DNA of 64,000 nucleotides, from NCBI GenBank assembly GCA_043814965.1, contig JBDRJN010000014.1, positions 3,084 to 67,083 on the forward strand. Direction: 5' to 3'. The notes beneath the pieces are model-generated. The model was given only the letters and a program-made list of their open reading frames with translations. It was not told the DNA's origin and made no database searches. Shown piece after piece: positions 1,664-49,631 of this stretch; position 1 is the first letter of the stretch, and each line of letters starts with the position of its first letter. The position numbers and the translations under genes are program-made. Origin of the DNA: Candidatus Omnitrophota bacterium (GTDB lineage: Bacteria > Omnitrophota > Gorgyraeia > Gorgyraeales > Gorgyraeaceae).

Positions 1664-2659
1664 ATGAAGATACTATATCTAGTTAAATATCTTTTTATAC
1701 CATTTTCCATAGTTTATTATCTAATAGTATCTCTTCGTAATTTTTTTTATGATACAAGTATTTTTAAAAGATATTCATTTAAGAATAAAGTAATAAGTGT
1801 AGGCAACATCACGTGGGGCGGGACAGGGAAGACCCCTCTGGCGATATATATAACCAGATTGCTTTTAGACAACAATAAAAAACCAGCAATACTTATTCGG
1901 GGTTATGGTGAGGATGAATACAAGCTTTTTTCTAGGCTGATACCGGATGTACCTGTAGGGGTGGGCAAAGACAGGATCAAGGAAGGAAAAAGATTATTAA
2001 CACATTCTTCTATAGATACATTTGTGCTAGATGATGGTTTTCAACATAGAAGGATCGATAGGGACTTGGATATAGTTTGCATAGACAGCCTGGATCCTTT
2101 TGGTAATGATCTATTGATCCCTGCTGGTTCAATGAGAGAGCCTCTCATGTCTCTTAGCAGGGGAGACATCTTTTTAATAACAAAAGTGGACCTCTGCGCC
2201 AGCAAAAAAAGATCGGATGATCTAGTAAAAAAACTAAAGAGTATAAATCCAAAAGCCATTATAGCAAAGGCTGTTTATAGGCTGGATTATTTTTATGACA
2301 TTAAAGATGGCTCAAAGATAGATGGATCTAAGCTGAGGAATAAAGAACTTGTCCTTGTCTCAGGCATTGCAAGCCCCAGGTCATTCGAAAATACTATATT
2401 GAACCTGGGGATGAAGATCAAAAAGCATTTTGCATTTAGAGACCATTATTTTTATAGCGGTATTAACCTGAAGAGGATAGAGGAGTTTTGCAGGGCTAAT
2501 AATATAGACGGTTTTATTGTCACGGAAAAGGATGCTGTCAAGATAAAGCCGATCGCAGAAAAAAGCAATGTAAAAATATACGTAGCTTCTATCTCGCTTG
2601 AGATCATTGAGAATAAAGATGAATTCCATAATAGACTTTTTACTATTTATAATAGTTAA
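1664..2659 (+). CDS. lpxK: tetraacyldisaccharide 4'-kinase
   Basis: The VISVGNITWGGTGKTPLAIYITRLL P-loop matches the LpxK signature GN(L/I)TxGGTGKTP. Length is 331 aa. Confidence 0.85.
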   Translation: MKILYLVKYLFIPFSIVYYLIVSLRNFFYDTSIFKRYSFKNKVISVGNITWGGTGKTPLAIYITRLLLDNNKKPAILIRGYGEDEYKLFSRLIPDVPVGVGKDRIKEGKRLLTHSSIDTFVLDDGFQHRRIDRDLDIVCIDSLDPFGNDLLIPAGSMREPLMSLSRGDIFLITKVDLCASKKRSDDLVKKLKSINPKAIIAKAVYRLDYFYDIKDGSKIDGSKLRNKELVLVSGIASPRSFENTILNLGMKIKKHFAFRDHYFYSGINLKRIEEFCRANNIDGFIVTEKDAVKIKPIAEKSNVKIYVASISLEIIENKDEFHNRLFTIYNS

Positions 2660-4589
2660 GGCGATCGGGCTGCTGTTGTCCTTTTTGCCTTTAGGCCTTT
2701 CTCTCTTTATAGGGCGAAGGCTGGGGGATATGGCATATCTTGTAAATTCAAAAAGAAGGTCTATCGCATATGCCAATCTAAAGGCTAGCTTCCCTGACAA
2801 AAAAAGAAAAGAGCTTAAAGAGATAGCCAGGTCCCATTACAGAAATCTGGGGATGAATATCATAGAGCTTTTAAAGTTTCCGCAGATGAGCCCTTCTTAT
2901 CTAAAAAGACATATTGAGTTTAGGGGCACGGAAAATACCGAAAAAGCGATTTCACAAGAAAAAGGCGTAATATTATTGACAGCTCACTTTGGAAATTGGG
3001 AGATATCTTCTCTTGCTTCAAATAGTCTTGGATACAAGATGAGCGTTTTTGCAAGGGAACAAAAATATAAAAAACTAGATAACCTGCTTAATCGATATAG
3101 GCAATTAACAGGATGTAAGGTTGTAACAAAGGGTTTTTCTGTAAGAGATATTATAAAAACGCTTAAAGATAATGGCATTGTCGCGATGCTGGCTGATCAG
3201 GATGCAGGAGCTAATGGAGTATTTGTTGATTTTTTTGGAAGAAGGGCTTCCGCGGCTACAGGCCCTATAGTCTTTGGCCAGAAGACGGGAGCAGTGATAC
3301 TGCCTTCTTTCGCAAGAAGAAAGGATGATCTTGATCATTTTGTAGAGATCAATAGACCCTTTGAGCTTATAGATACAAAAGATAAAGAAAAAGATCTCAA
3401 GGCAAATTTAGAAAACCTGAATAAGATCCTGGAGGGGTATATAACAAGATTTCCTGACCAATGGCTTTGGTCTCACAAGAGATGGAAGAGTTCTCCTGAC
3501 AGGAAAGTGCTTTTATTGAGCGATGGAAAGGCAGGGCACCTTAACCAGTCTTTGTCAGCAGCTGACCTGGTAAAGGACGCATTGCGTAGAAGACTCGATA
3601 GGAAGGGCATAAAAGAAAATGAGATCGTAGATATAAAAATCTGTGAGATTGAGTTTAAAAATAGGTTTACCAGGATATTTTTGGATATTGCAAGCGTATT
3701 TTCCGGCAGGCGCTGCCAAGGCTGTATGAGGTGTTTAAAGTTTTCCCTTACAAAAGAATCTTTTAAACGTGTCGCGGCCCAATATGCCGATATTGTGGTC
3801 TCGTGCGGGTCATCCCTGGCATCTGTAAATATATTTTTGAAATACGAGAACAATGCTAAAAACTGTATAATCATGAAACCAGGTTTCTATAATCGCGGCA
3901 AATTTGATAGGGTTATGATCTCAAAACATGATATGCCTTTTAAAAAGAGCCCTAACTTAGTTATTACAGAACTTCCGCTGAACAATATTACAAATATAGA
4001 GATGGATAAGAAAACCTCTGATGTGTTTGGGGAAGATATCGCTAAAGGCGGGGTAGGATTATTGGTAGGAGGCGATGCAAAAGGTTTTAGCCTGGATAAA
4101 GAATATACTGAAAGGCTCTTGGAAGCAGCCTTAAGGATATGCAAAGATAGATCACTAGGCTTATTTGTAACTACTTCTAGAAGGACCCCAGTCGAAATAG
4201 AAATGTATCTTAAAGACAAGCTTAAGGATGATGTATTATGTAGATCTCTTGTAATAGCTAACAAAGGTAATGTACAGGGCATAGTACCTGCGATATTAGG
4301 GGTAAGCGATATTATTTTGACAACACCAGATTCAGTATCTATGATCTCAGAGGCTGTCTCTTCAGGGAAATATGTAGTGGTTATAAAAGAGCATAAAAGT
4401 AAAATTAGACAGGGGCATGAGAATAAGTACGATAGGATCATAGCTAACTTGGAAAGAGACGGATACATAGAGACAGCTTATCCTTCTGGTATTTACGACA
4501 AGATAGCATATCTTCTAAAAAATAGGCCCAAGATCAAGGTTTTAAAAGATAGGGACATAGTGAGAGATTCTTTGGAATCAATATTATGA
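2598..4589 (+). CDS. lipid A biosynthesis acyltransferase (LpxL/HtrB family) fused to a C-terminal ELM1/DUF1022-like domain
   Basis: The N-terminal approx 300 aa carry ILLTAHFGNWE and MLADQDAG, as in LpxL/LpxM. From about nt 3500 the segment KVLLLSDGKAGHLNQSL matches the DGKAGhxNQslG start of the PF06258 (ELM1/DUF1022) family. The start is uncertain; 2598 overlaps the end of lpxK, and 2619 is an alternative ATG. Confidence 0.7.
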   Translation: MRSLRIKMNSIIDFLLFIIVKAIGLLLSFLPLGLSLFIGRRLGDMAYLVNSKRRSIAYANLKASFPDKKRKELKEIARSHYRNLGMNIIELLKFPQMSPSYLKRHIEFRGTENTEKAISQEKGVILLTAHFGNWEISSLASNSLGYKMSVFAREQKYKKLDNLLNRYRQLTGCKVVTKGFSVRDIIKTLKDNGIVAMLADQDAGANGVFVDFFGRRASAATGPIVFGQKTGAVILPSFARRKDDLDHFVEINRPFELIDTKDKEKDLKANLENLNKILEGYITRFPDQWLWSHKRWKSSPDRKVLLLSDGKAGHLNQSLSAADLVKDALRRRLDRKGIKENEIVDIKICEIEFKNRFTRIFLDIASVFSGRRCQGCMRCLKFSLTKESFKRVAAQYADIVVSCGSSLASVNIFLKYENNAKNCIIMKPGFYNRGKFDRVMISKHDMPFKKSPNLVITELPLNNITNIEMDKKTSDVFGEDIAKGGVGLLVGGDAKGFSLDKEYTERLLEAALRICKDRSLGLFVTTSRRTPVEIEMYLKDKLKDDVLCRSLVIANKGNVQGIVPAILGVSDIILTTPDSVSMISEAVSSGKYVVVIKEHKSKIRQGHENKYDRIIANLERDGYIETAYPSGIYDKIAYLLKNRPKIKVLKDRDIVRDSLESIL

Positions 4590-6721
4590 ATATACTGCAG
4601 ATCCTTCCAGCGCTTGAAGTAGGCGGAGTTGAGACAGGGACCATCGATCTATCCCGTGAACTTATGAAACGGGGCCACAATGTCATCGTTGTCTCTAATG
4701 GCGGTAAGATGGTAAAGCATCTTGTAGACATGGAAGCCCGCCATATCAAGCTGCCTGTACACAAAAAGTCACTAGTGACTATTATAAAGATGATAAAGAG
4801 ATTAAGGTATATTATACAAGAAGAAAATGTAGATATTGTGCATGCAAGATCCAGGGTCCCTGCCATAATAGCTTTTTTTGCTGCACGTTCTACAAGAGCG
4901 AACTTTATAACAACAGCGCATGGTTATTATTCTACGCATCTATTGAGCAAGGTGATGGGATGGGGTAAATTTGTGATCGTCGCATCAACTATCATGGGAA
5001 GGCACATGATAGAGAATTTTAAAGTCCCTCATGAAAGGTTAAGGTTTATACCCAGGGGCGTTGACCTTGAAGGCTTTAATTTTAATCCACCGGATCAATC
5101 AGATGCAAAATCGGAATATAAGATAGGTATAGTAGGCAGGATCACTCCGATAAAAGGGCATAGTTTTTTCTTGCAGTCTATCGCAAGAGTAATAAGGATA
5201 TTTCCTAAAGTAAAGATCCTTATCGTAGGCGACGCGCCTAAGGAAAAGCCTGAATACAGGCGTAATCTGGAACTTCTTATAAAAAAACTTGATATAGAAA
5301 GATTTGTTGAGTTCCTGGGCTCCAGGGATGACATGCCTAAAATTATGTCTTCTCTTGATCTATTGGTCTCTTCTTCTGTGGGGCAGGAGGCATTTGGAAG
5401 AGTAATAATTGAAGCAGGCGCAAGCGGTGTGCCTGTTGTGAGTACGCGTATAGGAGGAGTTGTAGATATAATCGAGGATAACAAGACAGGCCTTTTAGTA
5501 AAACCTGGTGATATAAAAGAGATGGTGGATGCTATATTAAAAGTTTTAAAGGACAGGAATCTTGCCAGGAACCTTGCAATCGAAGCAAGAAAAAAGGTAG
5601 AAAAGGAATACAATCTTAATGCTATGGCAGAGCGTACTATCAAAGTCTATGAAGAAGCGATAGATAAGAAGCGGATATTGGTCATAAAACTTGGGGCAAT
5701 AGGGGATGTCATACTTTCCGTCCCGAGCCTAAAACTCTTAAGGAATAATTTTCCCAATGCCTTTATAAGCGTATTAGTGGGGAATGAGTCCAGGCATATA
5801 TTGAAAAAGTGTCCATACATAGACGATATAATACTATATGACAATAGATCCAGCAGCAACATAAGGTCTCTTGTAAAGATATCCAATACAATAAGATCCA
5901 AGGGGTTTGATATGTCCATAGACTTGCAGAATAATAAAATAAGTCATTTTATAGCCTGGTTCAGTTTTATACCTATGAGATCTGGTTATGATAATAAAAA
6001 ACTCGGGTTTTTGCTTAATAATGGTATCAAGTATTTAAATATCGCTTCCGGCCCCATAGAAGAACAATTCAGGATCCTCAAAAAAGCGGGGTGTGATACA
6101 TCATCAGCCTCGAGGAGATTGGAATTATGGCCTTCCAGGGAAGATTTTCTGTATGTGGACAATTTTTTAAAAAGTGAATGGATAGGTGAGGGCCAGGTAC
6201 TCATCGGGATAAATATAGGAGGAAGCTGGAAGACAAAAAGATGGCCTAAAAGAAATATCGCAAGGCTTATTGATATGTTTGCTTCAAAACATATAAGAGT
6301 TGTCATAACTGGCGCGGAGAATGAAAAGGCCTTGGCAGAAGAACTCAAGTGTATCACAAAATCAAAGATCATAGATGCGGTCTCAAAGATAGACATATTA
6401 CAGCTGGCTAGCCTTATAAAAAGGTGTAAAGTATATATTACCGGAGATAGCGCTCCTATGCATATAGCTTCGGCTATGGGAGTAGAGTTTATAGCACTGT
6501 TTGGGCCGACAGACCCCAGGAGGCATGTTGAGCCAACAGCTAAGGCGGCTGTTATAAAAAAAGACCTGGCCTGTGCACCTTGCTATAGGTCAAAGTGCAA
6601 GAATATCATCTGTATGGATAAGATCAGCGTAGATGAGATATATAGATTGGTGATGGAAAAAATAGGAGATAATAAATCCGAAATCCGAAATCAGAAATCC
6701 GAAACAGATCCAAGATCTTGA
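4586..6721 (+). CDS. bifunctional glycosyltransferase: N-terminal GT4 (GT-B) domain fused to a C-terminal GT9 heptosyltransferase domain
   Basis: The N-terminus has ILPALEVGGVETGTIDL and the EAFGRVIIEAGASGVPVV EX7E-like region (GT4). From about nt 5670 it has ILVIKLGAIGDVILSVP and GDSAPMHIASAMGVEFIALFGPTDP, as in WaaC/WaaF/RfaQ-type GT9. The last 15 codons overlap a heptamer repeat. Confidence 0.7.
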   Translation: MNILQILPALEVGGVETGTIDLSRELMKRGHNVIVVSNGGKMVKHLVDMEARHIKLPVHKKSLVTIIKMIKRLRYIIQEENVDIVHARSRVPAIIAFFAARSTRANFITTAHGYYSTHLLSKVMGWGKFVIVASTIMGRHMIENFKVPHERLRFIPRGVDLEGFNFNPPDQSDAKSEYKIGIVGRITPIKGHSFFLQSIARVIRIFPKVKILIVGDAPKEKPEYRRNLELLIKKLDIERFVEFLGSRDDMPKIMSSLDLLVSSSVGQEAFGRVIIEAGASGVPVVSTRIGGVVDIIEDNKTGLLVKPGDIKEMVDAILKVLKDRNLARNLAIEARKKVEKEYNLNAMAERTIKVYEEAIDKKRILVIKLGAIGDVILSVPSLKLLRNNFPNAFISVLVGNESRHILKKCPYIDDIILYDNRSSSNIRSLVKISNTIRSKGFDMSIDLQNNKISHFIAWFSFIPMRSGYDNKKLGFLLNNGIKYLNIASGPIEEQFRILKKAGCDTSSASRRLELWPSREDFLYVDNFLKSEWIGEGQVLIGINIGGSWKTKRWPKRNIARLIDMFASKHIRVVITGAENEKALAEELKCITKSKIIDAVSKIDILQLASLIKRCKVYITGDSAPMHIASAMGVEFIALFGPTDPRRHVEPTAKAAVIKKDLACAPCYRSKCKNIICMDKISVDEIYRLVMEKIGDNKSEIRNQKSETDPRS

Positions 6722-41174: not shown

Positions 41175-41203
41175 TTGACAGGAAAGCGGTTACATGGTAT
41201 ACT
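41175..41203 (+). promoter_or_regulatory. putative sigma70-type promoter of the giant gene (TTGACA-17-TATACT)
   Basis: TTGACA at 41175-80, a 17-nt spacer, then TATACT at 41198-203. A hairpin GCTACTTT..AAAGTAGC lies in the leader. An AAGGAG RBS lies 6 nt before the ATG at 41287. Confidence 0.5.
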
Positions 41204-41286
41204 TATAATAGCTACTTTCAAATACTTTTAAAGTAGCTTTAATAAGTCAAACAAACAGGTTAAATAGGAAAAGTAAGGAGATATTA

Positions 41287-44200
41287 ATGACAGTATGTTC
41301 TTTAAGGAAAACGTGTTCTGTCTTTTTAATAGTGATCTTTACTATTACTAATATTGCCTATGGAGCTCCCAGCGAAAGGTCCTTTTTTAAGAATAAAAAA
41401 GTAGATTATAAGAAATTAAGCACCCAAAGCCAAGAACAGCTCGAGAAGAAAAAGGCTGTTTTAAGCGGTGAAGATGTAAAAAAGACAAGTAAAAAACCTT
41501 CCAAGGCCAAGCAAATAGATTTTAGCGCCCATCTAAGCGATATATCAGAGATAAATATCCCCGGCGAATTAGGAAGAGTCGTTGAGGTATATAAAGCCCC
41601 TGATTCTGAAAAAGACAAGAACAGGCTTGTAGTACATATCCAGGACCTCCATGCCAATCCTGAGGCTACACTTAACCTGGCAAGTATATTGGAGATATTG
41701 GTAAAAGATTATAACCTGGATCTAATATGTTCTGAAGGCGCGGAAGGAGAGGTTGATACATCAAGCGTTTCCAGTTTTCCTGACGCTGAGATCAGGAAAA
41801 AGACAGCAAAGCTATTTGTAAATTCAGGAGAACTTACAGGAGAAGAATACCTTTCTATTACCAAATACCCGGATCTTCCTATATGGGGAATAGAAGATAA
41901 GGATATATATTTCAATAATATAGTCCAGTTCAATAAGATAATGCAGTTTTCCAACTCCAGTTATGTCTTTATCTCGCAGTGCACAAATGCGCTGGATGCG
42001 TTGAAGCCTTACATATACTCAAAAGAGATCCTGGAATTGGACCAGAAAGAATCCGAATACGATAATGGTAATCTGGAGACATCTTTGTACCTGGATTATG
42101 TCTTGCCTTATGTGGAGCAGTTCAATATATCGAAAGACAAATATAAAAATATCTCTCTTTTAACAGAGACGATGGCTAAAGAAAAGACTATTGACCAGCA
42201 AAAGGTGATGAAAGAATCGCAAGACCTTTTAATGGACCTTCAGAATATGCTTTCAAGAAAAGGCGGAGAATCTGACCTGGAAGCCCTGATAGCCAAGGCA
42301 GAGCTTTTTAAGAATAAGAAAATATCGCCATTCTCTTTCTATAATTACCTGAAGGGCCTGGCTCAGAAGCACCTGAAGGAGAAATCAGAGAGCTATACGT
42401 ATCTAAATGAATTTATAGATTATCTTACCAAGGTAAACGATCTTGATGCTTCAAAGCTTTTTACTGAGATCGGGGAATTAAGTTATGAGATAAAAGATAA
42501 TCTTGCCAAAAAAGACGAAGAAAAGCTTCTTACAAAGGTTATACGTAATGCAAAGTTCTTGACAGGGTTTTTTAGCCTCAAGATATCCAATGAAGAGCTT
42601 GACTACTACCTGGAAGACAAACCTTCTTTTGAAGTATCATTCTTTAAGGAATTCCTAGAGCCCAACCTTAAAAAATATAATATTACGAGTTACGTGGATT
42701 ATAACCCTGAATTTATAGACAATAAGTTCAGCGAAATAGAGGAGTTTTACGGTACTGTAAAATCGCGAGATTTTTCCATGTTCAATAATTCCATGTCTCA
42801 GATCGAAAGTAGAAGAGCAAAAGTCGCAGCCCTTATATCAGGAGGTTTTCATACCAGGGGCATAACAAAACTATTAAGAGAAAAAGGTTATTCTTATGTA
42901 GTTATATCCCCTTACTCTTCGCAGGAGACAGATGAAGAGAACTACCACTTCCTTCTCTCAGGACAGCGTAAACCAATAGAAGAGCTTATAAGGCAGCTAG
43001 ACGTAGAAGAGACAGTCGATAGATTATCTTCCAATGATAATCTGCGCAGTTTAATGCGTTTCGGGAATAATACAGTAGAGGCCTGGAATAATTCTGTAGT
43101 ACCTCAAAAGATAGCTGAGATATTGGGATTAAAAGTAGAAGACGTACAATTAGAGCCTTTATTGAATGATGCTGCAATTGTGCTGGGATTAAGCAGCGGC
43201 GCAGAAGCATGGCATAGTTCTCCGGTAGGTATGGAAGTAAGGTCTCCAAGAAAAGGAGAGATAATATTAAAGTTCGATGATAATAGTTATGTAAAGATGA
43301 CGAGCCTTGGAGAGGTAAAACGTGTAGATAAAAAAGAATTCAGAGGAAAGACCACTCTTAGCATAACTCCTAATGTAGACGGAACTATAAATGTAGCTGA
43401 AACTGATAGAGGCAAAGGTTCGCCCCTGGAGTTGTTAAAATTCATGGTGGATGGGACATATTACGAAGGGGAGTCCATATCTAAAGCAGATTTAGTAGCT
43501 GGAAGGTCTTTTTCTGTATCTACTATAGACCTAGAGATAAAAAGCCTTACAGAACTCGGACTATTAAAAAAGAATAGTGATGGGACATATGAACTTACGA
43601 GCTATATAGGCCTAGAGCAATATAATAATATTAAAGCAGTTACAGGTCCTATAGTACAAGTTAATGGTAAAAACGAGGGATTAAATCGTTATAGGATAGA
43701 CGACCTGTCAGAAGATAAAAAGAATGAATTTAAAAATGCCATAGACTTTGCTGTAACTTACCAAAAGACCCCATCAAACTTTCTAAAAAAATTAATCCTT
43801 GCAGGAGGCAAGCTTGATATCAAAGGTACCGGTGAATCTGGCGAGGCCCTTGCGCTTTATTATGCGGATCTAGCTGAGACTTTTGCAGGACCTACTGGAA
43901 TAGAATCTGTGGCATTGAGTAAAAATATTACATTTGCTGAGGCAGGGCTTATAGCAGATATTGTAGATCATGCCAGCGCGCTTAATATTACAGGAACCAG
44001 AAACAGCATAAGTCAAGCTTTTGAAACAGCAAAAAATCTTTCTGTATCACGAGAGGAGCCTAGATACAGTATAAAAGAGACGTCACTAAGTTCAGATTTT
44101 GAAATAGCAAGAAATCTTCCTGATATGTATAGAGATCTTTCCCCGGAAAAGATCAAAGACAAGATCATAATAGTACGAGGCAATTTAAACGCGCCTTTGG

Positions 44201-47200
44201 ATAAATCTGGAGAAGTAAGTGATCCTACCAGGCCGGATAATATTGATAAGGCTGTTACTTATATAATTGAAAATGGAGGTACACCTGTTGTCTATGGCCA
44301 TCTCATGAGGCGTGAAAATAATATATCTATGGAGCCAGTAGCTAGTTATTTATCAGATAAATACGGACAAGATGATGTAGTTTTTCATAAGGGTAGCATC
44401 ACTAAAGACGGATTAACGATCAGTCGAAATAATATTATAAGGGGTAAGATCAATATCCTTGAAAATATAAGGCTCGTAGACAAAGAAAATGAAGCAAAGC
44501 TTGGCAGGCAGATCGCATCTCTTTCTGAAGACAAGATATTAGTAGCTGACGCGCTTGGGGATGAAGGATCAAGCGATGTCGTACATGTCTATAATGCCGC
44601 TAGCGAGGTATATCAGGGGCCGGAAGAAAGAAGAGAATTTTCTGAATTGGAAGATACACTGAAAAATGGCGTTGATGTAGTATTGTTCGGTGGATTTAAA
44701 ATAGAAAAACTGGATCTTTTATTAAGGCTGGTCGATGCCCTGAGAGATGGCGGTGTTGTCTTATTGGGGTCAGGACCTTCAGACCACATCAGGAACGATC
44801 CTGAAATAAAAGAGCAATTAAAAGGCCTTATTGATGCAGGAAAGATCATCTTAGCTGAAGGGGATAAGTATTATTTTAATAAAGTAATGGGAAGGGACAT
44901 GCCAGGAGATATCTCTTCTCAGGATCTAGAGAGATACTCCAATATCCTTGATAACCTTAAACCAGGCCAGAGGGTCTTATTTAATGGGACAATGGGTTTT
45001 ATGGAGAAAAAGGATAGTAATGAAAATATAGAAATATCCTATAGAGAAGGTACTAAAAAGATACTCGAGAAAGTATCTGAGATCAGTGAAAAAGGCGTAA
45101 AAGGCCTTGGAGTCGGAGGAGATGGTACAAAATGGGCCAGGCATTATAGATTGAATAAGAAGGAAAATATAATGCTGTCTACAGGAGGTGGAGTTTCCCT
45201 AAGCCTTATTACGCATGAACCTTTAAAAGGTACTAAAGCGCTTTCCAATAGAGCGCAAACTCAGAAAATTGCAAAGCGAGATTTTTCATCTGAGTATGGC
45301 TATGTAGCTGAGGATTTAGTCGGTCCGCTAGCTAGCATGGCAAAAACTACCAGCCAGGATAATACACCTTACGCAAAATACGCATCAGATAGAGATAATG
45401 TAAGCCCCTCTACCATAAAGACACAACCTGCTATTGGCCGTCCGGAAGCGGTAGCGTATGAGGCAGATTCTCCTTATAATATAATAACGCAGTTACAAGA
45501 AGCTAAAAAAACTGACTATGCCCGAAACTTACAGGATGTAATGAGTGTCGCATTAAGGGATTATCCGGAATTGAGAGATATTTCTTTTAAGATAAAAATA
45601 ATCAGCAACAGCCAGGAAAACCTTGCTGAATATATGCCAGGCCAGGAAATGATAACAATAGATGAGTCTATACTCGCTAATTTTGAACTTATGCGCCAGG
45701 AGCTTATCTCGGAAGAATTCCGCCATATGCTATATAATAATCTTGTACGGTCAGTAAGAAATAAAGATGTAACGCCTAGGCAGAGACTTGTAGAAGAGGC
45801 TGCCACAGATATGCAGAAATTTAGGGACCTTCTTAGGATACAGACAGCCGAGGGAAGAGCTGCTCTTATCGGGCCTTTGATCTATTCTACTGATAAATTC
45901 AATTTCTACAGGCTGCTTTTGAGAACTATACCGCAGGGAAAAGAAAGGAACGATGTCCTGGATATTCTTCTTCGAGACCATTTTATATCAGAAGATTTTA
46001 GAAATAATTATAGTGAGCGTAAAGGGATAAGCGGAGATGAGGAAAGGCAGGTAGAGGCCTTAAATACTCATTATAAAAACAATTCTGTATTTTCTCCGGA
46101 ATTACAGCGCTTGATGATTAAACCTATAACGCTTGAAGAAGTGAAAGCTTATGAAACCGATTTCAATAATATCAGGCTAGAGTATAGAGCGCAGAAGATG
46201 GCTGAAAAGCCGGCATCAGCTGAAGATACATGGACAGAGGTTACTAAGAAGTTTACAGATAAGGCAGAACAATATGAACGTGCAATGATACTTACTGAGT
46301 TAGATAAGATCGCTAGCGGCGACTATGTGGCTGAGGATCTAATCGGTCCGCTAGCTATTAACCAGCTTCCTATAGATGTAAGTGATGATAGAGATACTGT
46401 AGGAATTCTTTTGTCAGCAGAAGGGTTACTTGGAAAAGGTTTTATTAGCGAGAGAAGAATAGATAATAACAATGATCTCGACAGGACCAATCCTTCTAAG
46501 CCAGCTTACTATATTGACCGCATGGAGAATGCATTAGAAGAGCACAGTACATATGATGAGATAATACTCGCAGTTATAGATGACAGGATGAAAACACAGG
46601 TCTGGAAAGAGATTAAAACTGCATTCCAGGGTACTGAATACGAGTTTCTTTTACGTAAGATTAGAGTAGTAAGCAAGATCAAACCTGATACAGGCAATCA
46701 TGATGCAGTAATTGAACTGCTTGATTCAGCTGTAGGTGTAGGAAAAAAGGAAGATAATGATAAAGGTCGTTTCCTTATTATACAGACTGCCGGAAGCGGA
46801 TCTAGGAACTATCCTTTAACAGCAACTGCTAAAGGCAATAAGGGCCTAGTACAGGTACCGGGAGATATTGATGGTAAGGCAGTGTTCAATAATATTATTC
46901 AGACTATCTGCCAATCACATCAGCTCCTTGATGATACCCCATCTGGGACAGTTACTGTGCTGGGATGTGACCAGCTTTGGGCTGTAGCTAATTCAGTAAA
47001 AGGTAGTGGTGCAGGCTTAGATATTCTTGGCAATAGTGTTAGCATGGATAATGTTATTAAAGAACTCGTAGATCTAGGGATTATAAATGGAGTAGAAAAC
47101 AGCAAAATTATTTCTGATCTAACTGAAGAAGAGATTGCTTTAAGAATAGACTATCTTTTTGACCCTAAGATCAGAACTGAAGAAGTAGGTCTAAAATGGA

Positions 47201-49509
47201 GAGGAAAGACAGTAGCAGCCCTAGCACCTAGTCTATATGAGATGTCTGAATTAGGTCATTTATGGTCAGGGGAAGGAACATACCTGGATAGCATGATAGA
47301 AAAACCCAATAACTGGGATATGTTAAAACCTATTCTAGAAAAAGGTTCGACAAATTTTAATTGGTGGAACCATCGTTATAGTATAAGCGGAGCAAAGAAA
47401 GCAGTTGAAATATATAAAGATCATATAGGAGAAGGCCTTGATATCTCCAATGATGTACTGCAGGTTGTAGGTAAAGAATATGAAGATTGGCGCGCTTTAA
47501 GGGTAATGCAGATTAAAAAATTAGCTAGTATTGAAGACGGCAGGAAAGTTAGATTACCCGACGAAGAAGAAACAAGACTGAAAAATATATATATGCTTGC
47601 TTCAGACTTTCATAAGGCATTGGGCAGCTCTATAGGTTATATTGACTTAGGGAAGGATTCAGTGTTTGCAGATACAGGAAAGAATACTGTTTTATTGGAG
47701 TCATATCTTAAAATCTTCAATAATACAAAAGAAGGAGAATTGCTGCGAAGACTTTGTAATATTAAAGAAAGGAATTTTCTTGCGCCCAATGTGCTTAGTT
47801 TTGGTTCACCCAAGTTAAACGAAGCTTTTAAAGCAGGCAAGATAAAAGTAGCAGAGAACGCAAAGGTAATATTTATTGACTCTGATAATGTGCTTGAGGC
47901 TGATATAAAAGCTGGAGGGAGCCTTATAATAGATTCTTGCATAGAAAAGCTTAATGTCAAAGGCAGCGGCCTTGTCTGTTATGTTCGCGAAGAAGGTGTA
48001 GTAGATTTAGAAGAGGGCAAAATTGTAGCTGATGTGGTTAATAAAAATAGTGAACTTGAGCGCATAGTAGAAGACCTAGCTGGAGATCCAAAGGCCAAAG
48101 GTGCCTCGCATCATAGATTTTCACCTGTTATTGAAACGCTAGGAGCTATTAAAGTGGCAAAGATATACGATGATGCCAAGAGATCATTTGAGGCTAGTGT
48201 TAGAGGTAAACAAGCGACAGGCCAGTCTCTCCTTGGCGGTATGGCAGAGGGGATAGGCGTAGATGAATATTCTAGTATAGAGACTAGCAGCCTTAGTGAA
48301 GCTGAAAAAGAGGCGATAACTAGAGAAGCTCTTTCGAATGCAATAGATAATTTTACAAACCTTGAATTATTCAATAAGGTCTTAAATAATTCTACCTCAA
48401 CATATATTACAAGAAACGGCCAGATAACTACTTCTGATGCTGGAGACCTTGGTGCAGCTTTCACGGATTCTGGATTATTGGACCTAGCCATAGAGGCTGG
48501 TATGGAGTTTCCTGTCAATGGTGTTGTAATATCCAAAAATGCCGGGTTAGAGAATGCCCCTATAGAGATAATAAATTCTGTAGCTAGGCATAGTGCTAAA
48601 AAAGATATATTCTTGAGCGCGCTACAGGATATTAAATCAGGCACATTAACTACAGATAATCTGACTCCAGTCGAACTTGAATTCTTATCAGCCGTAAAAG
48701 ACTTTACGGAACTTTCTATCTTTACAGGTTTATTTAGTGAAAATGGGCCTGATTTTATAAAGCTTGATCCAAATGGCTCGGTAAATACATCCGACCTTAT
48801 AGAGCTGAATCTAGAGTTTAGCGATTTAGGTATAATGGAATACGCCAATGATATTGGTCTAGAATTGGATGGAGTAGTGATTTCTGGAGATACTACTACT
48901 GCAGCAGCTGACATGAAGCAGGAATTCGGCCTTAGTTATCAAGATATTGTCTCAACTGACCTAGATGAAGTTGGTGGAGGAGAGGCATTAGGTATTGGCG
49001 GAGAAGAATATAATACTATAGAGACCAGTGGCTTTACTGAAGAAGATCCTATGATTAGTGCTGCTAAGGAAGAACTCAAAAAAGTGACAGAAGCAGTTTT
49101 AAGGCCAGCGCCAAGTTTAGAAACTAGGATGTCCGAACTTTATGATATTTCCTCTAAGGATAAGGTTGACAGTATGAGCCAGATCGATGCTGTATTTGCA
49201 GACAAAGTTATTGGTAATGAGGTAGAGTTCGAGGCATGGCTGCGTGATAAGCGTAACGGAGGCCATGCAGTAGTTATCATAGCAACCGAAGACGAATACG
49301 CTGATGTTGAAAAATATAAAGATATTGCTTACATAAAAGTCTTGGGTAGAGATATAAAAGGCCCAGGTTTTATTAAGAAATTTGAAGAACTAAGAGTATT
49401 GTGCGAATTTAAACAATTTGCGAGTTTTAACTTTGGTGATGTATTAGATGTCTCATCAAATGTTGATGAATACAAGGAAGCATTCGAAGCAGTAGCTGAC
49501 GACATGTAG
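41287..49509 (+). CDS. giant secreted multidomain protein (2740 aa): signal peptide; TraB/GumN-like region; phosphoglycerate-kinase-like domain; sugar-nucleotidyltransferase-like + LbH-like region; acidic repeat-bearing C-terminus
   Basis: Uninterrupted 8223-nt ORF with its own promoter, RBS and terminator. Signal peptide MTVCSLRKTCSVFLIVIFTITNIAYG/AP. Region nt approx 41570-42970 is TraB/GumN-like (LVVHIQDLH..DLICSEG; SGGFHTRGITKLLREKGYSYV). Region nt approx 44160-45230 is PGK-like (VRGNLNAPLD..DPTRPD; GHLMRRE; ILENIRL..KENE; VLFGGFKIEKLDLLLRLVDAL; VLFNGTMGFME; GVGGDGT; STGGGVSLSL). Region nt approx 46770-48040 is NTP-transferase-like (IIQTAGSGSRNYPLTATAKGNKGLVQV; VTVLGCDQLW) with hexapeptide-like repeats (VIFIDSDNVLEADIKAGGSLIIDSCIEKLNVKGSGLV). 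Confidence 0.8.
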   Translation: MTVCSLRKTCSVFLIVIFTITNIAYGAPSERSFFKNKKVDYKKLSTQSQEQLEKKKAVLSGEDVKKTSKKPSKAKQIDFSAHLSDISEINIPGELGRVVEVYKAPDSEKDKNRLVVHIQDLHANPEATLNLASILEILVKDYNLDLICSEGAEGEVDTSSVSSFPDAEIRKKTAKLFVNSGELTGEEYLSITKYPDLPIWGIEDKDIYFNNIVQFNKIMQFSNSSYVFISQCTNALDALKPYIYSKEILELDQKESEYDNGNLETSLYLDYVLPYVEQFNISKDKYKNISLLTETMAKEKTIDQQKVMKESQDLLMDLQNMLSRKGGESDLEALIAKAELFKNKKISPFSFYNYLKGLAQKHLKEKSESYTYLNEFIDYLTKVNDLDASKLFTEIGELSYEIKDNLAKKDEEKLLTKVIRNAKFLTGFFSLKISNEELDYYLEDKPSFEVSFFKEFLEPNLKKYNITSYVDYNPEFIDNKFSEIEEFYGTVKSRDFSMFNNSMSQIESRRAKVAALISGGFHTRGITKLLREKGYSYVVISPYSSQETDEENYHFLLSGQRKPIEELIRQLDVEETVDRLSSNDNLRSLMRFGNNTVEAWNNSVVPQKIAEILGLKVEDVQLEPLLNDAAIVLGLSSGAEAWHSSPVGMEVRSPRKGEIILKFDDNSYVKMTSLGEVKRVDKKEFRGKTTLSITPNVDGTINVAETDRGKGSPLELLKFMVDGTYYEGESISKADLVAGRSFSVSTIDLEIKSLTELGLLKKNSDGTYELTSYIGLEQYNNIKAVTGPIVQVNGKNEGLNRYRIDDLSEDKKNEFKNAIDFAVTYQKTPSNFLKKLILAGGKLDIKGTGESGEALALYYADLAETFAGPTGIESVALSKNITFAEAGLIADIVDHASALNITGTRNSISQAFETAKNLSVSREEPRYSIKETSLSSDFEIARNLPDMYRDLSPEKIKDKIIIVRGNLNAPLDKSGEVSDPTRPDNIDKAVTYIIENGGTPVVYGHLMRRENNISMEPVASYLSDKYGQDDVVFHKGSITKDGLTISRNNIIRGKINILENIRLVDKENEAKLGRQIASLSEDKILVADALGDEGSSDVVHVYNAASEVYQGPEERREFSELEDTLKNGVDVVLFGGFKIEKLDLLLRLVDALRDGGVVLLGSGPSDHIRNDPEIKEQLKGLIDAGKIILAEGDKYYFNKVMGRDMPGDISSQDLERYSNILDNLKPGQRVLFNGTMGFMEKKDSNENIEISYREGTKKILEKVSEISEKGVKGLGVGGDGTKWARHYRLNKKENIMLSTGGGVSLSLITHEPLKGTKALSNRAQTQKIAKRDFSSEYGYVAEDLVGPLASMAKTTSQDNTPYAKYASDRDNVSPSTIKTQPAIGRPEAVAYEADSPYNIITQLQEAKKTDYARNLQDVMSVALRDYPELRDISFKIKIISNSQENLAEYMPGQEMITIDESILANFELMRQELISEEFRHMLYNNLVRSVRNKDVTPRQRLVEEAATDMQKFRDLLRIQTAEGRAALIGPLIYSTDKFNFYRLLLRTIPQGKERNDVLDILLRDHFISEDFRNNYSERKGISGDEERQVEALNTHYKNNSVFSPELQRLMIKPITLEEVKAYETDFNNIRLEYRAQKMAEKPASAEDTWTEVTKKFTDKAEQYERAMILTELDKIASGDYVAEDLIGPLAINQLPIDVSDDRDTVGILLSAEGLLGKGFISERRIDNNNDLDRTNPSKPAYYIDRMENALEEHSTYDEIILAVIDDRMKTQVWKEIKTAFQGTEYEFLLRKIRVVSKIKPDTGNHDAVIELLDSAVGVGKKEDNDKGRFLIIQTAGSGSRNYPLTATAKGNKGLVQVPGDIDGKAVFNNIIQTICQSHQLLDDTPSGTVTVLGCDQLWAVANSVKGSGAGLDILGNSVSMDNVIKELVDLGIINGVENSKIISDLTEEEIALRIDYLFDPKIRTEEVGLKWRGKTVAALAPSLYEMSELGHLWSGEGTYLDSMIEKPNNWDMLKPILEKGSTNFNWWNHRYSISGAKKAVEIYKDHIGEGLDISNDVLQVVGKEYEDWRALRVMQIKKLASIEDGRKVRLPDEEETRLKNIYMLASDFHKALGSSIGYIDLGKDSVFADTGKNTVLLESYLKIFNNTKEGELLRRLCNIKERNFLAPNVLSFGSPKLNEAFKAGKIKVAENAKVIFIDSDNVLEADIKAGGSLIIDSCIEKLNVKGSGLVCYVREEGVVDLEEGKIVADVVNKNSELERIVEDLAGDPKAKGASHHRFSPVIETLGAIKVAKIYDDAKRSFEASVRGKQATGQSLLGGMAEGIGVDEYSSIETSSLSEAEKEAITREALSNAIDNFTNLELFNKVLNNSTSTYITRNGQITTSDAGDLGAAFTDSGLLDLAIEAGMEFPVNGVVISKNAGLENAPIEIINSVARHSAKKDIFLSALQDIKSGTLTTDNLTPVELEFLSAVKDFTELSIFTGLFSENGPDFIKLDPNGSVNTSDLIELNLEFSDLGIMEYANDIGLELDGVVISGDTTTAAADMKQEFGLSYQDIVSTDLDEVGGGEALGIGGEEYNTIETSGFTEEDPMISAAKEELKKVTEAVLRPAPSLETRMSELYDISSKDKVDSMSQIDAVFADKVIGNEVEFEAWLRDKRNGGHAVVIIATEDEYADVEKYKDIAYIKVLGRDIKGPGFIKKFEELRVLCEFKQFASFNFGDVLDVSSNVDEYKEAFEAVADDM

Positions 49510-49574: not shown

Positions 49575-49588
49575 GAAAGTGTACCCTA

Positions 49589-49631
49589 TAGGCCTTTTGT
49601 GTACTAAACCTACACAAAAGGCCTATTTTTT
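49589..49631 (+). terminator. Rho-independent terminator of the giant gene
   Basis: Perfect 15-bp stem TAGGCCTTTTGTGTA / TACACAAAAGGCCTA with a 7-nt loop and a T6 tract at 49626-31. Confidence 0.75.

Follow-up and report, generated by a model that had tools for sequence, protein, structure and literature searches.

What would a glycolytic enzyme do outside the cytoplasm? The question is raised by a single 8.2-kb ORF (41287..49509, on the + strand, as are all features described below) in the window, i.e., the whole 64,000-nt stretch of Omnitrophota DNA analysed here. The ORF encodes a protein of 2740 aa that is identical to NCBI MFH1478974.1. The protein begins with a signal-peptide-like segment and contains a domain resembling phosphoglycerate kinase (PGK), which is its sole Pfam domain, its sole recognisable enzyme domain, and only 15% of its length. 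An earlier note on this DNA had pointed to the paradox of an exported PGK fold. The paradox is real and recurs across the protein family, in which a signal-peptide-like start precedes an ATP-dependent enzyme.

The giant gene is predicted to be a transcription unit of its own. A sigma-70-like promoter candidate, TTGACA-17-TATACT with TG ahead of the second hexamer, lies at 41175..41203; it is the top + strand site upstream of the ORF and matches at 11 of 12 positions, as a consensus match only. A Shine-Dalgarno-like AAGGAG (41275..41280), read from the sequence, stands 6 nt 5′ of the ATG, and a hairpin resembling an intrinsic terminator, with a stem of 16 bp and then a run of T, is found downstream of the ORF (49588..49626).

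The PGK-like domain extends from aa 940 to 1340 (~44104..45306), with the N-lobe at about aa 955–1130 and the C-lobe at about aa 1131–1320. By fold and by family it is a genuine PGK, and both lobes are complete. Pfam PF00162 matches aa 955–1151 and a second stretch with 97.5 bits (E 1.1e-27; gathering cut-off 27). PDB PGKs align with both lobes, 3zlb and 4dg5 over their full length; in the 3zlb alignment, query residues 17–383 correspond to aa 956–1322. An AF2 model of aa 940–1345 has a pLDDT of 86.6 and a pTM of 0.82, and when it was compared with the PDB by Foldseek, the best 50 matches were all PGKs (E 3e-22, TM 0.65–0.74, ~410–440 columns). The earlier note had recognised a two-lobe PGK fold with correct motif order and spacing and had proposed alignment and structure prediction as checks; both bear the assignment out, and the motif matches are not spurious. 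The range that it gave, 44160–45230, is about right but short at both ends, and its 3′ limit cuts the last conserved motif, STGGGVSLS...LKG.

Membership in the family does not make the domain the organism's housekeeping PGK, the role implied by the NCBI title, 'MAG: phosphoglycerate kinase [Candidatus Omnitrophota bacterium]', and compatible with the significant PF00162 match. The domain is only 24–27% identical to ordinary PGKs and lies inside a protein with a signal-peptide-like start, rather than forming a free protein of ~390–400 aa. The sole NCBIfam match, to the PGK/TIM bifunctional model PRK13962, reaches 73 bits against a cut-off of 883, far below the equivalog level for a housekeeping enzyme, and the basic patch of the substrate site is incomplete. 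Moreover, all 176 of 176 complete Omnitrophota genomes were reported as PGK-positive at a strict threshold, a count that does not distinguish stand-alone from embedded genes. We regard a housekeeping role as very improbable.

Mapping of the active site, also proposed in the earlier note, was carried out with reference residues in human PGK numbering. The residues for phosphotransfer and nucleotide binding are all in place: R982 (Arg38), K1138 (Lys215), K1141 (Lys219), N1233 (Asn336), E1240 (Glu343), G1277-G1278-D1279 (Gly372-Gly373-Asp374), and G1300–1302 (Gly394–396). On the substrate side, His62, Arg65, Arg122, and Asn25 are present. The loop GDEGSSD (aa 1091–1097; 44557..44577) stands at the position of the canonical GTAHRAH: aa 1087–1097 read A-D-A-L-G-D-E-G-S-(gap)-S-D where the canonical enzyme has N-D-A-F-G-T-A-H-R-A-H. 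Thus, Thr167 is replaced by Asp1092, His169 by Gly1094, and Arg170 by Ser1095, and His172 is deleted. Further changes are Asp23 to Asn, GGG to GSG, Pro338 to Thr, and Thr375 to Gly. The basic patch and the Asp23/Asn25 pair are therefore incomplete in the query. The AHRAH segment had been described before as substituted by an acidic Gly/Ser-rich stretch, and so it is; the segment was also called catalytic, which it is not, as it belongs to the 3-phosphate site. Three arginines bind the substrate 3-phosphate; Arg170 is among them and also aids the closed, active state, and Asp23 binds the 2-oxygen of the substrate (PMC7729029, sections 3.1–3.2). With both residues lost, normal PGK turnover may be impaired.

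The altered loop is no one-off substitution: it recurs as a conserved hallmark throughout a group of embedded PGK-like domains. An exhaustive HMMER search of 1.84 billion representatives returned about 26 relatives of the query domain, at 31–41% identity and 103–228 bits over the whole domain, whereas free ordinary PGKs (~390 aa) scored at most 72 bits. Almost all of the relatives sit at varied positions inside proteins of 0.5–6.6 kaa, with one representative just 414 aa long, and they come from Omnitrophota and from lineages close to it, namely Auribacterota, Elusimicrobiota, and one MAG labelled Planctomycetia. In a neighbour-joining tree, the embedded PGK-like domains form one branch with a long stem. 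Residue counts over 27 sequences, query included and at most 50% identical, show Asn25, Arg38, His62, Arg122, Lys215, Lys219, and Glu343 kept in 27/27, Arg65 in 21/27, Asp374 in 22/27, and Gly394–396 in nearly all. The changes are as regular as the retained residues: Arg170 is Ser in all 27, Thr167 is Asp in 26, and Asp23 is Asn in 25. The group consensus loop is DAFGD(V/I)GSKGASVE, and when the 9-mers of the group are ranked by conservation, the loop is in the top ten (3.45 and 3.22 bits, compared with 2.56 on average). The presence of some 26 relatives on one branch, with a conserved alternative loop and retained catalytic residues, argues that, at the level of the group, the loop change is not decay.

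The query carries the whole set of signature residues, namely Asn23 (N966), Asp167 (D1092), Ser170 (S1095), G-S-G at 236–238, Thr338 (T1235), and an acidic residue at 218 (E1140). It is nevertheless an atypical, deep-branching member and has the longest branch of the group. The full group motifs GD(V/I)GSKGASVE and FTGGGV appear in it as GDEGS--SDVV, with a two-residue deletion, and STGGGV. Given the long branch and the deletion in a loop that the group conserves, the query itself could be in decay, even if the type as a whole is functional.

These observations bear on whether the domain is a pseudo-enzyme, i.e., a ligand- or protein-binding unit or a surface adhesin of the kind known from moonlighting PGK. 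The loss of Arg170, His169, His172, and Asp23, the extra loop deletion and long branch of the query, and the presence of a signal-peptide-like export signal are all compatible with such a role, and surface-exposed PGK with non-glycolytic functions is documented (PMC7729029, section 6). Yet the nucleotide-binding and phosphoryl-transfer residues have been retained across ~27 sequences of such low identity. Per-column conservation is as high as in canonical PGKs (overall information content 2.56 for the group versus 2.63), with peaks at the same functional motifs, and neighbouring cassettes in related proteins keep their catalytic motifs as well. We therefore consider a pure binding role quite unlikely. 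The rebuilt 3-phosphate site should alter affinity, anion regulation, or domain closure without abolishing the chemistry.

The neighbouring cassettes are those of relatives of the query. The PGK-like domain occurs together with GAPDH in P0095, P0108, and P0111, with PPDK in P0096, with FBPase in P0097, and with PGM in P0107 and P0113; in P0118, a protein of 4,729 aa, the order is PPDK-GAPDH-TIM-PGK-enolase. ASCTTN is kept in three of the four GAPDH cassettes and SHRSGETED in the enolase cassette. The adjoining GAPDH, TIM, enolase, and PPDK keep their catalytic motifs, which favours a domain still active as a PGK-type kinase among a glycolysis-like set of enzymes. The earlier note had suggested a repurposed binding or phosphotransfer module; the cassettes of the relatives speak against mere binding. 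For the query protein, this pathway context is borrowed from its relatives.

The remainder of the protein is organised around conserved end modules. The N-terminal module (aa ~80–575; 41524..43011), which defines the protein family, has a putative alpha/beta core with a large helical insert; the core is likened to the hydrolase-type erythromycin-esterase/TraB/ChaN/Tiki superfamily. His122, Glu150, Arg494, Gly519-Gly520, and His522 are invariant, the His/Glu/Arg/His set in 20 diverse members, and His122, Glu150, Arg494, and His522 may be equivalents of the catalytic residues of EreB/EreC. Relatives with the same module reach 4.7 kaa and carry one to nine enzyme Pfams each. The C-terminal module (aa ~2620–2740; 49144..49506) is common to many family members (E down to 2e-18), and a search among known families gave no match to it. 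Between these modules, two copies of YVAEDL(V/I)GPLA, one directly 3′ of the PGK-like domain (45301..45333) and one at 46324..46356, bracket aa 1350–1679; the repeat was found in 0 of 88 relatives. A pattern match, AGSGSRNYPLTATAK (46792..46836), resembles the GxGxRxxPL signature of sugar-1-phosphate nucleotidyltransferases, an assignment without support in the Pfam or PDB searches.

Where, then, would the kinase act? The first 26 residues, MTVCSLRKTCSVFLIVIFTITNIAYG (41287..41364), followed by AP, have the n/h/c layout of a signal peptide: the n-region is basic (R7, K8), the uncharged stretch of ~21 residues includes a hydrophobic core of ~13, and A-Y-G|A-P comes next. This is the sole strongly hydrophobic segment of the protein, and the two lipoprotein signal peptides encoded in the window have similar n- and h-regions. 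The same layout is conserved in ~70 members of the N-module family and in most hosts of the PGK group; the call of a signal-peptide-like start, made earlier for this protein, is borne out by heuristics and by this family-wide conservation. Sec targeting by such a signal peptide would place the kinase outside the producer's cytoplasm. A point against export is that neither ATP nor ADP should be present in the periplasm or extracellularly. Another comes from the charge after the predicted cleavage site. In the close subfamily of the query this region reads RSxFKNKKVDY, with a net charge of +4 over the first 18 'mature' residues in the query, and in Gram-negative bacteria such a charge at the mature N-terminus disfavours export through Sec.

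The same strongly basic segment could mean that the N-terminal stretch only tethers the protein to the inner membrane, so that the same enzyme and its neighbours would be part of a glycolytic or gluconeogenic scaffold facing the producer's cytoplasm. The cargo found across the wider family fits this arrangement, as domains such as PFK, PGK, CMP kinase, ABC1 kinases, methyltransferases, receiver/HATPase, and SecA depend on cofactors of the cytoplasm. West-Roberts et al. doubted their own extracellular prediction for related proteins (10.1101/2023.11.21.568195), and for long proteins of the TM-only class a 2026 preprint prefers a position on the cytoplasmic face. Against the scaffold, the core is short (~12–14 residues), preceded by two to five basic residues and followed by an AxA-type c-region, the pattern of a cleaved signal peptide rather than of an N-out anchor, and the residues after the site are neutral or acidic in distant family members and in most hosts of the PGK group. 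To keep the bulk of the protein inside, moreover, the basic N-terminus would have to be translocated, which contradicts the positive-inside rule. Membrane tethering is possible but, in our view, doubtful.

The reading that we prefer, and hold with evenly balanced confidence, treats the cassette as a divergent paralogue of PGK, catalytically competent and remodelled at the 3-phosphate site, that forms part of a Sec-targeted host protein and acts outside the cytoplasm. The N-terminal signal peptide would direct the protein, with its EreA/TraB/Tiki-like hydrolase-type module at the start, into the Sec pathway. The C-lobe most likely still binds Mg-ADP/ATP, and the N-lobe would hold a three-carbon acid whose carboxyl or acyl-phosphate accepts or donates the phosphoryl group; 1,3-bisphosphoglycerate/3-phosphoglycerate, or something closely analogous, is the probable substrate. 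At its far end the substrate site is rebuilt, with a Gly/Ser/Asp loop for Arg170, His169, and His172 and with Asn for Asp23. The kinase might act in the periplasm, at the cell surface, or at or inside a partner cell. A wider proposal, which we think improbable as it stands, is that Omnitrophota and related ultra-small bacteria deploy signal-peptide polyproteins with active GAPDH, TIM, PGK variant, enolase, and PPDK at or in a host or prey cell, converting intermediates of the partner, with the ATP taken up by the epibiont. If this is true, the rebuilt phosphate site of the PGK would be an adaptation to the contact-zone setting.

Several known systems share parts of this design. Canonical PGK (EC 2.7.2.3; e.g., T. 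maritima 1VPE and human PGK1) has in common with the query the two-lobe fold, the motif order and spacing, and Arg38, His62, Arg65, Arg122, Lys215, Lys219, Glu343, Asp374, and the Gly loops; it is, however, a free cytosolic monomer of ~400 aa, whereas the query is an internal domain of a much larger, signal-peptide-like protein. In the Thermotoga PGK-TIM fusion (NF010569), which keeps the full basic patch, and in the PAS-PGK and PGK-like proteins of kinetoplastids, PGK is joined to other domains, as in the query. Unlike the query, these fusions are cytosolic or glycosomal and have a full basic patch; their partner domains number one or two, and they lack a signal peptide. The kinetoplastid variants are reviewed in PMC7729029. 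In pathogenic bacteria, moonlighting PGK is exposed at the surface and so presents this fold beyond the cytoplasm (PMC7729029, section 6), a likeness that applies if the query is exported. Moonlighting PGK, however, is the ordinary cytosolic enzyme; it lacks a signal peptide and its active site is unaltered, whereas the query belongs to a dedicated paralogue group with a signal-peptide-like host.

Also close are the Archaeovorins (West-Roberts et al. 2023, 10.1101/2023.11.21.568195, section 8), Omnitrophota giant proteins with glycolytic-like domains that are predicted to be extracellular, and the Omnitrophota 'multi-enzyme metabolic cluster' class of giant proteins in the 2026 preprint. Both unite TPI, PGI, FBPase, PGM, FBA, and PPDK-related domains on one polypeptide. 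The query resembles them in its Omnitrophota origin, signal-peptide-like or membrane-associated character, glycolysis-related domain, and localisation paradox; it differs in size and composition, as the catalogued proteins have at least 10 kaa and are tiled by many enzyme Pfams, compared with 2.74 kaa and one Pfam domain. Neither preprint mentions PGK/PF00162 or the GDxGS-type group, examines catalytic residues, or reports the conserved N-terminal EreA/TraB-like and C-terminal modules; one of them says of the N-terminal regions that they 'generally lack identifiable domains'. Domains of the glycolytic type are already on record for giant proteins of Omnitrophota, and the PGK variant group is an addition to these.

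The domain under study belongs to the phosphoglycerate kinase (PGK) family. It matches PF00162 in two stretches at 97.5 bits (E 1e-27; Pfam cut-off 27), and solved PGKs align with it over both lobes, 3zlb covering residues 17-383 of the segment aa 940-1356. An AlphaFold2 model of aa 940-1345, built with the alignment of relatives as input, reaches a pLDDT of 86.6 and a pTM of 0.82. Every one of the best 50 PDB matches that Foldseek returns for this model is a PGK (E about 1e-22 to 1e-19, TM 0.65-0.74, over ~410-440 columns). Thus, the earlier note's proposal of a genuine PGK family member with a two-lobe fold is borne out by both the family match and the predicted structure. The domain extends from ~44104 to 45306, and the range first proposed is slightly short at both ends.

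The same note held that the segment carrying AHRAH had been substituted. An alignment that includes both canonical PGKs and human PGK1 confirms this: canonical N-D-A-F-G-T-A-H-R-A-H corresponds to A-D-A-L-G-D-E-G-S-(gap)-S-D in the query. The key residues of the human PGK1 sequence used match the literature numbering, which supports its accuracy, and that numbering is used here. The query keeps Arg38, Lys215, Lys219, Asn336, Glu343, Gly372-Gly373-Asp374 and Gly394-396, which we take to be the nucleotide-binding and phosphoryl-transfer residues; all of this kind are retained. On the substrate side of PGK, Arg65, Arg122 and Arg170 are ligands of the 3-phosphate, His62 contacts the bridging oxygen, Asp23 and Asn25 hold the 2-oxygen, and in the closed state Asp218 is paired with Arg65 and Arg170 (PMC7729029, sections 3.1-3.2). 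At these and adjoining positions the query keeps His62, Arg65, Arg122 and Asn25 and changes Arg170 to Ser1095, His169 to Gly1094, Thr167 to Asp1092 and Asp23 to Asn966, with His172 deleted. To describe the loop as a replaced catalytic segment therefore goes too far, as it is part of the 3-phosphate site and the phosphotransfer and nucleotide residues are intact.

The query is not alone in this. When 1.84 billion representative proteins were searched exhaustively with HMMER, ~26 matched over the full length of the domain (31-41% identity, 103-228 bits); ordinary PGKs of ~390 aa score at most 72 bits against the query domain. In almost all of these matches the domain is internal, at a varied position, in hosts of 0.5-6.6 kaa; one representative has only 414 aa. 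In a neighbour-joining tree the embedded domains fall on one long-stemmed branch, of which the query is the deepest and longest twig. Named sources are Omnitrophota, Auribacterota (Ca. Theseobacter exili), Elusimicrobiota and one MAG labelled Planctomycetia. Word-index searches missed this group: with the domain alone four ordinary PGKs were retrieved (24-27% identity) and none of the embedded relatives, and with the group profile, again, ordinary PGKs only.

Across the 27 members, query included, position 170 is Ser throughout, 167 is Asp and 172 is Gly in all but one, and 23 is Asn in 25. Arg38, His62, Arg122, Lys215, Lys219 and Glu343 are each invariant; Arg65 is retained in 21 and Asp374 in 22. 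The alternative loop, (I/F)DAFGD(V/I)GSKGASVE, lies within the group's ten most conserved 9-residue blocks. The conservation peaks of the group match the classical PGK motifs one-to-one, and mean conservation per column is 2.56 bits, versus 2.63 in canonical PGKs; a decayed, pseudogene-like domain was rejected on this equality. Read from sequence, the conservation pattern is that of a functional enzyme family in which the substrate-phosphate site would have been remodelled. The query differs from its own group in a loop shorter by 2 residues, and this deletion calls for caution about the query copy specifically.

Other unusual PGKs were encountered. A second, separate group embedded in long proteins (P0123, P0129, P0137, P0148, P0173, P0233 and others) has the loop FDAFGTAERVHAST, with His169 changed to Glu and with Arg170 and His172 retained. 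In P0130 (797 aa) two ordinary PGKs stand in tandem, as a duplication. The stand-alone P0142 (389 aa) is intermediate, with Asp23 to Asn, Thr167 to Asp, His169 to Ala, Arg170 to Lys and Pro338 to Thr, and is placed with ordinary PGKs in the tree. P0020, the other protein with the query's N-terminal module that is flagged with PF00162, was rejected as a carrier of the same cassette, being of the ordinary type with His169 and Arg170 kept.

The domain is enclosed in a single 8.2-kb ORF on the + strand (41287-49509; 2740 aa), the product of which is identical to NCBI MFH1478974.1, 'MAG: phosphoglycerate kinase [Candidatus Omnitrophota bacterium]'. An exact-sequence search for contigs with the giant protein gave no match. 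That the protein is a housekeeping PGK, as the NCBI name has it, is highly improbable. A near-consensus promoter-like site (41175-41203) lies upstream of the ORF, AAGGAG stands 6 nt ahead of the ATG, and a terminator-like 16-bp hairpin with a T run (49588-49626) lies downstream; from these signals the gene appears to be transcribed separately, as a unit of its own. The upstream neighbours are the housekeeping genes uppS-cdsA-dxr-rseP-ispG-proS, and downstream come rimP-nusA-infB and a gene for a class I (Trp/Tyr-type) aminoacyl-tRNA synthetase. The gene and those around it have a uniform GC content. An assembly chimera was rejected on the continuous ORF, this uniformity, the gene's own expression signals, and an architecture common to many independent relatives. 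A link to the neighbours was likewise rejected, the surroundings being housekeeping genes with a lipopolysaccharide cluster further upstream.

That lipid A/LPS and Kdo cluster (1664-25400) contains lpxK, two lipid A acyltransferases, several GT9 heptosyltransferases, kdsA/B/C/D-like genes, lptC and an ABC ATPase, as well as two fused ORFs, acyltransferase + ELM1-like (2598-4589) and GT4 + GT9 (4586-6721). Such a cluster marks the organism as a diderm. Almost every ORF of 150 aa or more in the window is on the + strand, and GC skew is positive throughout, with a monotonic rise of the cumulative skew to 6.2; the pattern fits a segment of the leading strand, with neither origin nor terminus in the window.

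A homologue search with the full protein gave 88 relatives of 1.5-4.7 kaa, mostly labelled Omnitrophota, with a few Elusimicrobia, Endomicrobiaceae and Chlamydiota. What they share is confined to the N-terminal ~570 residues and, often, the C-terminal ~115. The variable middles carry PGM, PFK, PGI, class II aldolase, FBPase, enolase, transaldolase and UDP-glucose pyrophosphorylase, and also glutamate dehydrogenase, aminotransferases, CMP kinase, ABC1 kinases, methyltransferases, DUF89 and SecA. The N-terminal module (aa ~80-575) also heads P0094, P0097, P0101 and P0115, hosts of the embedded PGK-like group. In its AF2 model (pLDDT 87.8) a helical insert of ~300 residues interrupts a small alpha/beta core; in Foldseek EreC and BcR135 ranked first, with non-significant scores, and 20 diverse members all carry His122, Glu150, Arg494 and His522. 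These features suggest that every family member is headed by a hydrolase of the erythromycin-esterase/Tiki type, a putative enzyme that might process the polyprotein. The acidic C-terminal module of ~115 residues (49144-49506, aa ~2620-2740), common to many family members (E down to 2e-18), matches no known family and could be a sorting or assembly domain.

Pfam scans of the query found no recognisable enzyme domain other than PGK; aa 571-954, 1341-1700, 1690-2260, 2250-2625 and 2600-2740 gave zero matches at E <0.1. A PDB sequence search found no match for the N-terminal module or aa 1690-2260, and homologues of aa 1341-2260 are absent among the fetched proteins. At ~43470-43600 (aa ~729-772), between the N-terminal module and the PGK-like domain, lies a weak winged-helix-like match (PF25213 HVO_A0261_N, E 0.13). 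Self-BLAST found no internal repeats except two short copies of YVAEDL(V/I)GPLA (45301-45333 and 46324-46356), which bracket aa 1350-1679, the first directly after the PGK-like domain. The motif was not found in the 88 relatives, and the copies may be linker or processing sites. The motif AGSGSRNYPLTATAKG (46792-46836) resembles the GxGxRxxPL signature of sugar-1-phosphate nucleotidyltransferases, and ~350 residues further on (~47800-48060) a stretch reads like a left-handed beta-helix; Pfam and PDB gave no support for this tentative reading.

In 12 hosts of the group that were scanned with Pfam, the following cassettes accompany the PGK-like domain: GAPDH in P0095, P0108 and P0111, PPDK in P0096, FBPase in P0097, PGM in P0107 and P0113, and adenylate kinase in P0120. 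In P0118 (4,729 aa; locus L001 of GCA_054039695.1, 10001-24190) the order is PPDK-GAPDH-TIM-PGK-enolase. This protein, with a signal-peptide-like start, places most of lower glycolysis in one polypeptide, and its gene has housekeeping neighbours (ftsH, folP, pdxJ, ATP synthase). Catalytic ASCTTN is retained in 3 of 4 GAPDH cassettes, and SHRSGETED in the enolase cassette. By analogy with these relatives, the neighbouring cassettes argue that the PGK-like cassette would still handle 1,3-BPG/3-PG or a close analogue. The earlier note had argued from export, away from the usual cytoplasmic substrates, for a repurposed binding or phosphotransfer module; a non-catalytic binding or adhesion module is improbable, as residue pattern and neighbouring cassettes point elsewhere.

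The query begins MTVCSLRK-TCSVFLIVIFTITNIAYG/APS, with predicted cleavage before APS, and has no strongly hydrophobic segment beyond this N-terminus. The signal-peptide-like start reported earlier stands, its layout (2-5 basic residues, a hydrophobic core of ~12-14, a polar c-region, small residues at -3 and -1) being shared by ~70 members of the N-module family and by most complete hosts of the PGK-like group, P0118 included. The n- and h-regions resemble those of the window's two lipoprotein signal peptides. By ordinary rules, this N-terminus would act as a Sec signal peptide that is cleaved off, with most of the protein exported. After the predicted cleavage site, at aa 27-45 (41365-41420), comes the highly conserved basic motif AP-x-(S/D)-(R/K)-S-x-FKNKKVDY-x-K, restricted to the query and its close relatives P0002-P0034; distant members are neutral or acidic there. 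A strongly basic early mature region is unfavourable for Sec export in Gram-negative bacteria, and the first 18 'mature' residues of the query, with RSxFKNKKVDY, carry net +4, a charge seldom seen in exported proteins. This is a counter-indication to export in the close subfamily. The same enzyme tethered at the cytoplasmic face is accordingly an alternative of some weight, though unlikely beside the conserved signal layout. The reading that we favour, with middling confidence, is that of a divergent PGK paralogue cassette, catalytically competent and with a rebuilt 3-phosphate site, which would be carried by a Sec-targeted multi-enzyme protein and act outside the producer's cytoplasm.

Few known enzymes are as conserved as PGK, whose Arg/His 'basic patch' is regarded as a family hallmark. 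Here a whole group retains the chemistry residues while a conserved Gly/Ser/Asp loop stands in for some of the patch, which offers enzymologists a natural experiment on how the enzyme binds its substrate and closes its domains. The group is almost confined to cassettes in long export-signal proteins, sometimes beside a full lower-glycolysis set, which sharpens the question for Omnitrophota of whether such metabolic domains are active and on which side of the membrane. As the 400-residue domain is small enough for expression and assay, the question is directly testable. Naming the whole 2740-aa protein 'phosphoglycerate kinase' can inflate pathway-completeness calls when genomes are surveyed; several relatives are likewise named after whichever single enzyme domain is present.

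Omnitrophota 'Archaeovorins' hold TPI-, PGI-, FBPase-, PGM/PMM- and FBA-like domains and PPDK, predicted to be extracellular, a prediction that the authors doubt (West-Roberts et al., 10.1101/2023.11.21.568195, section 8). For proteins of 10 kaa and above, a 2026 preprint defines a class named 'multi-enzyme metabolic cluster' (10.64898/2026.06.07.730766, sections 8 and 21) and allows both extracellular and cytoplasmic-face readings. In neither preprint is PGK or PF00162 named for the giant proteins, and neither speaks of catalytic residues or pseudoenzymes or describes the N-terminal module; according to one of the two, N-terminal regions are generally without identifiable domains. Thus, glycolytic-like domains in Omnitrophota giant proteins are a known general phenomenon, and the PGK-variant group, its conserved alternative loop and the 2-5 kaa host family are, within the literature searched, new.
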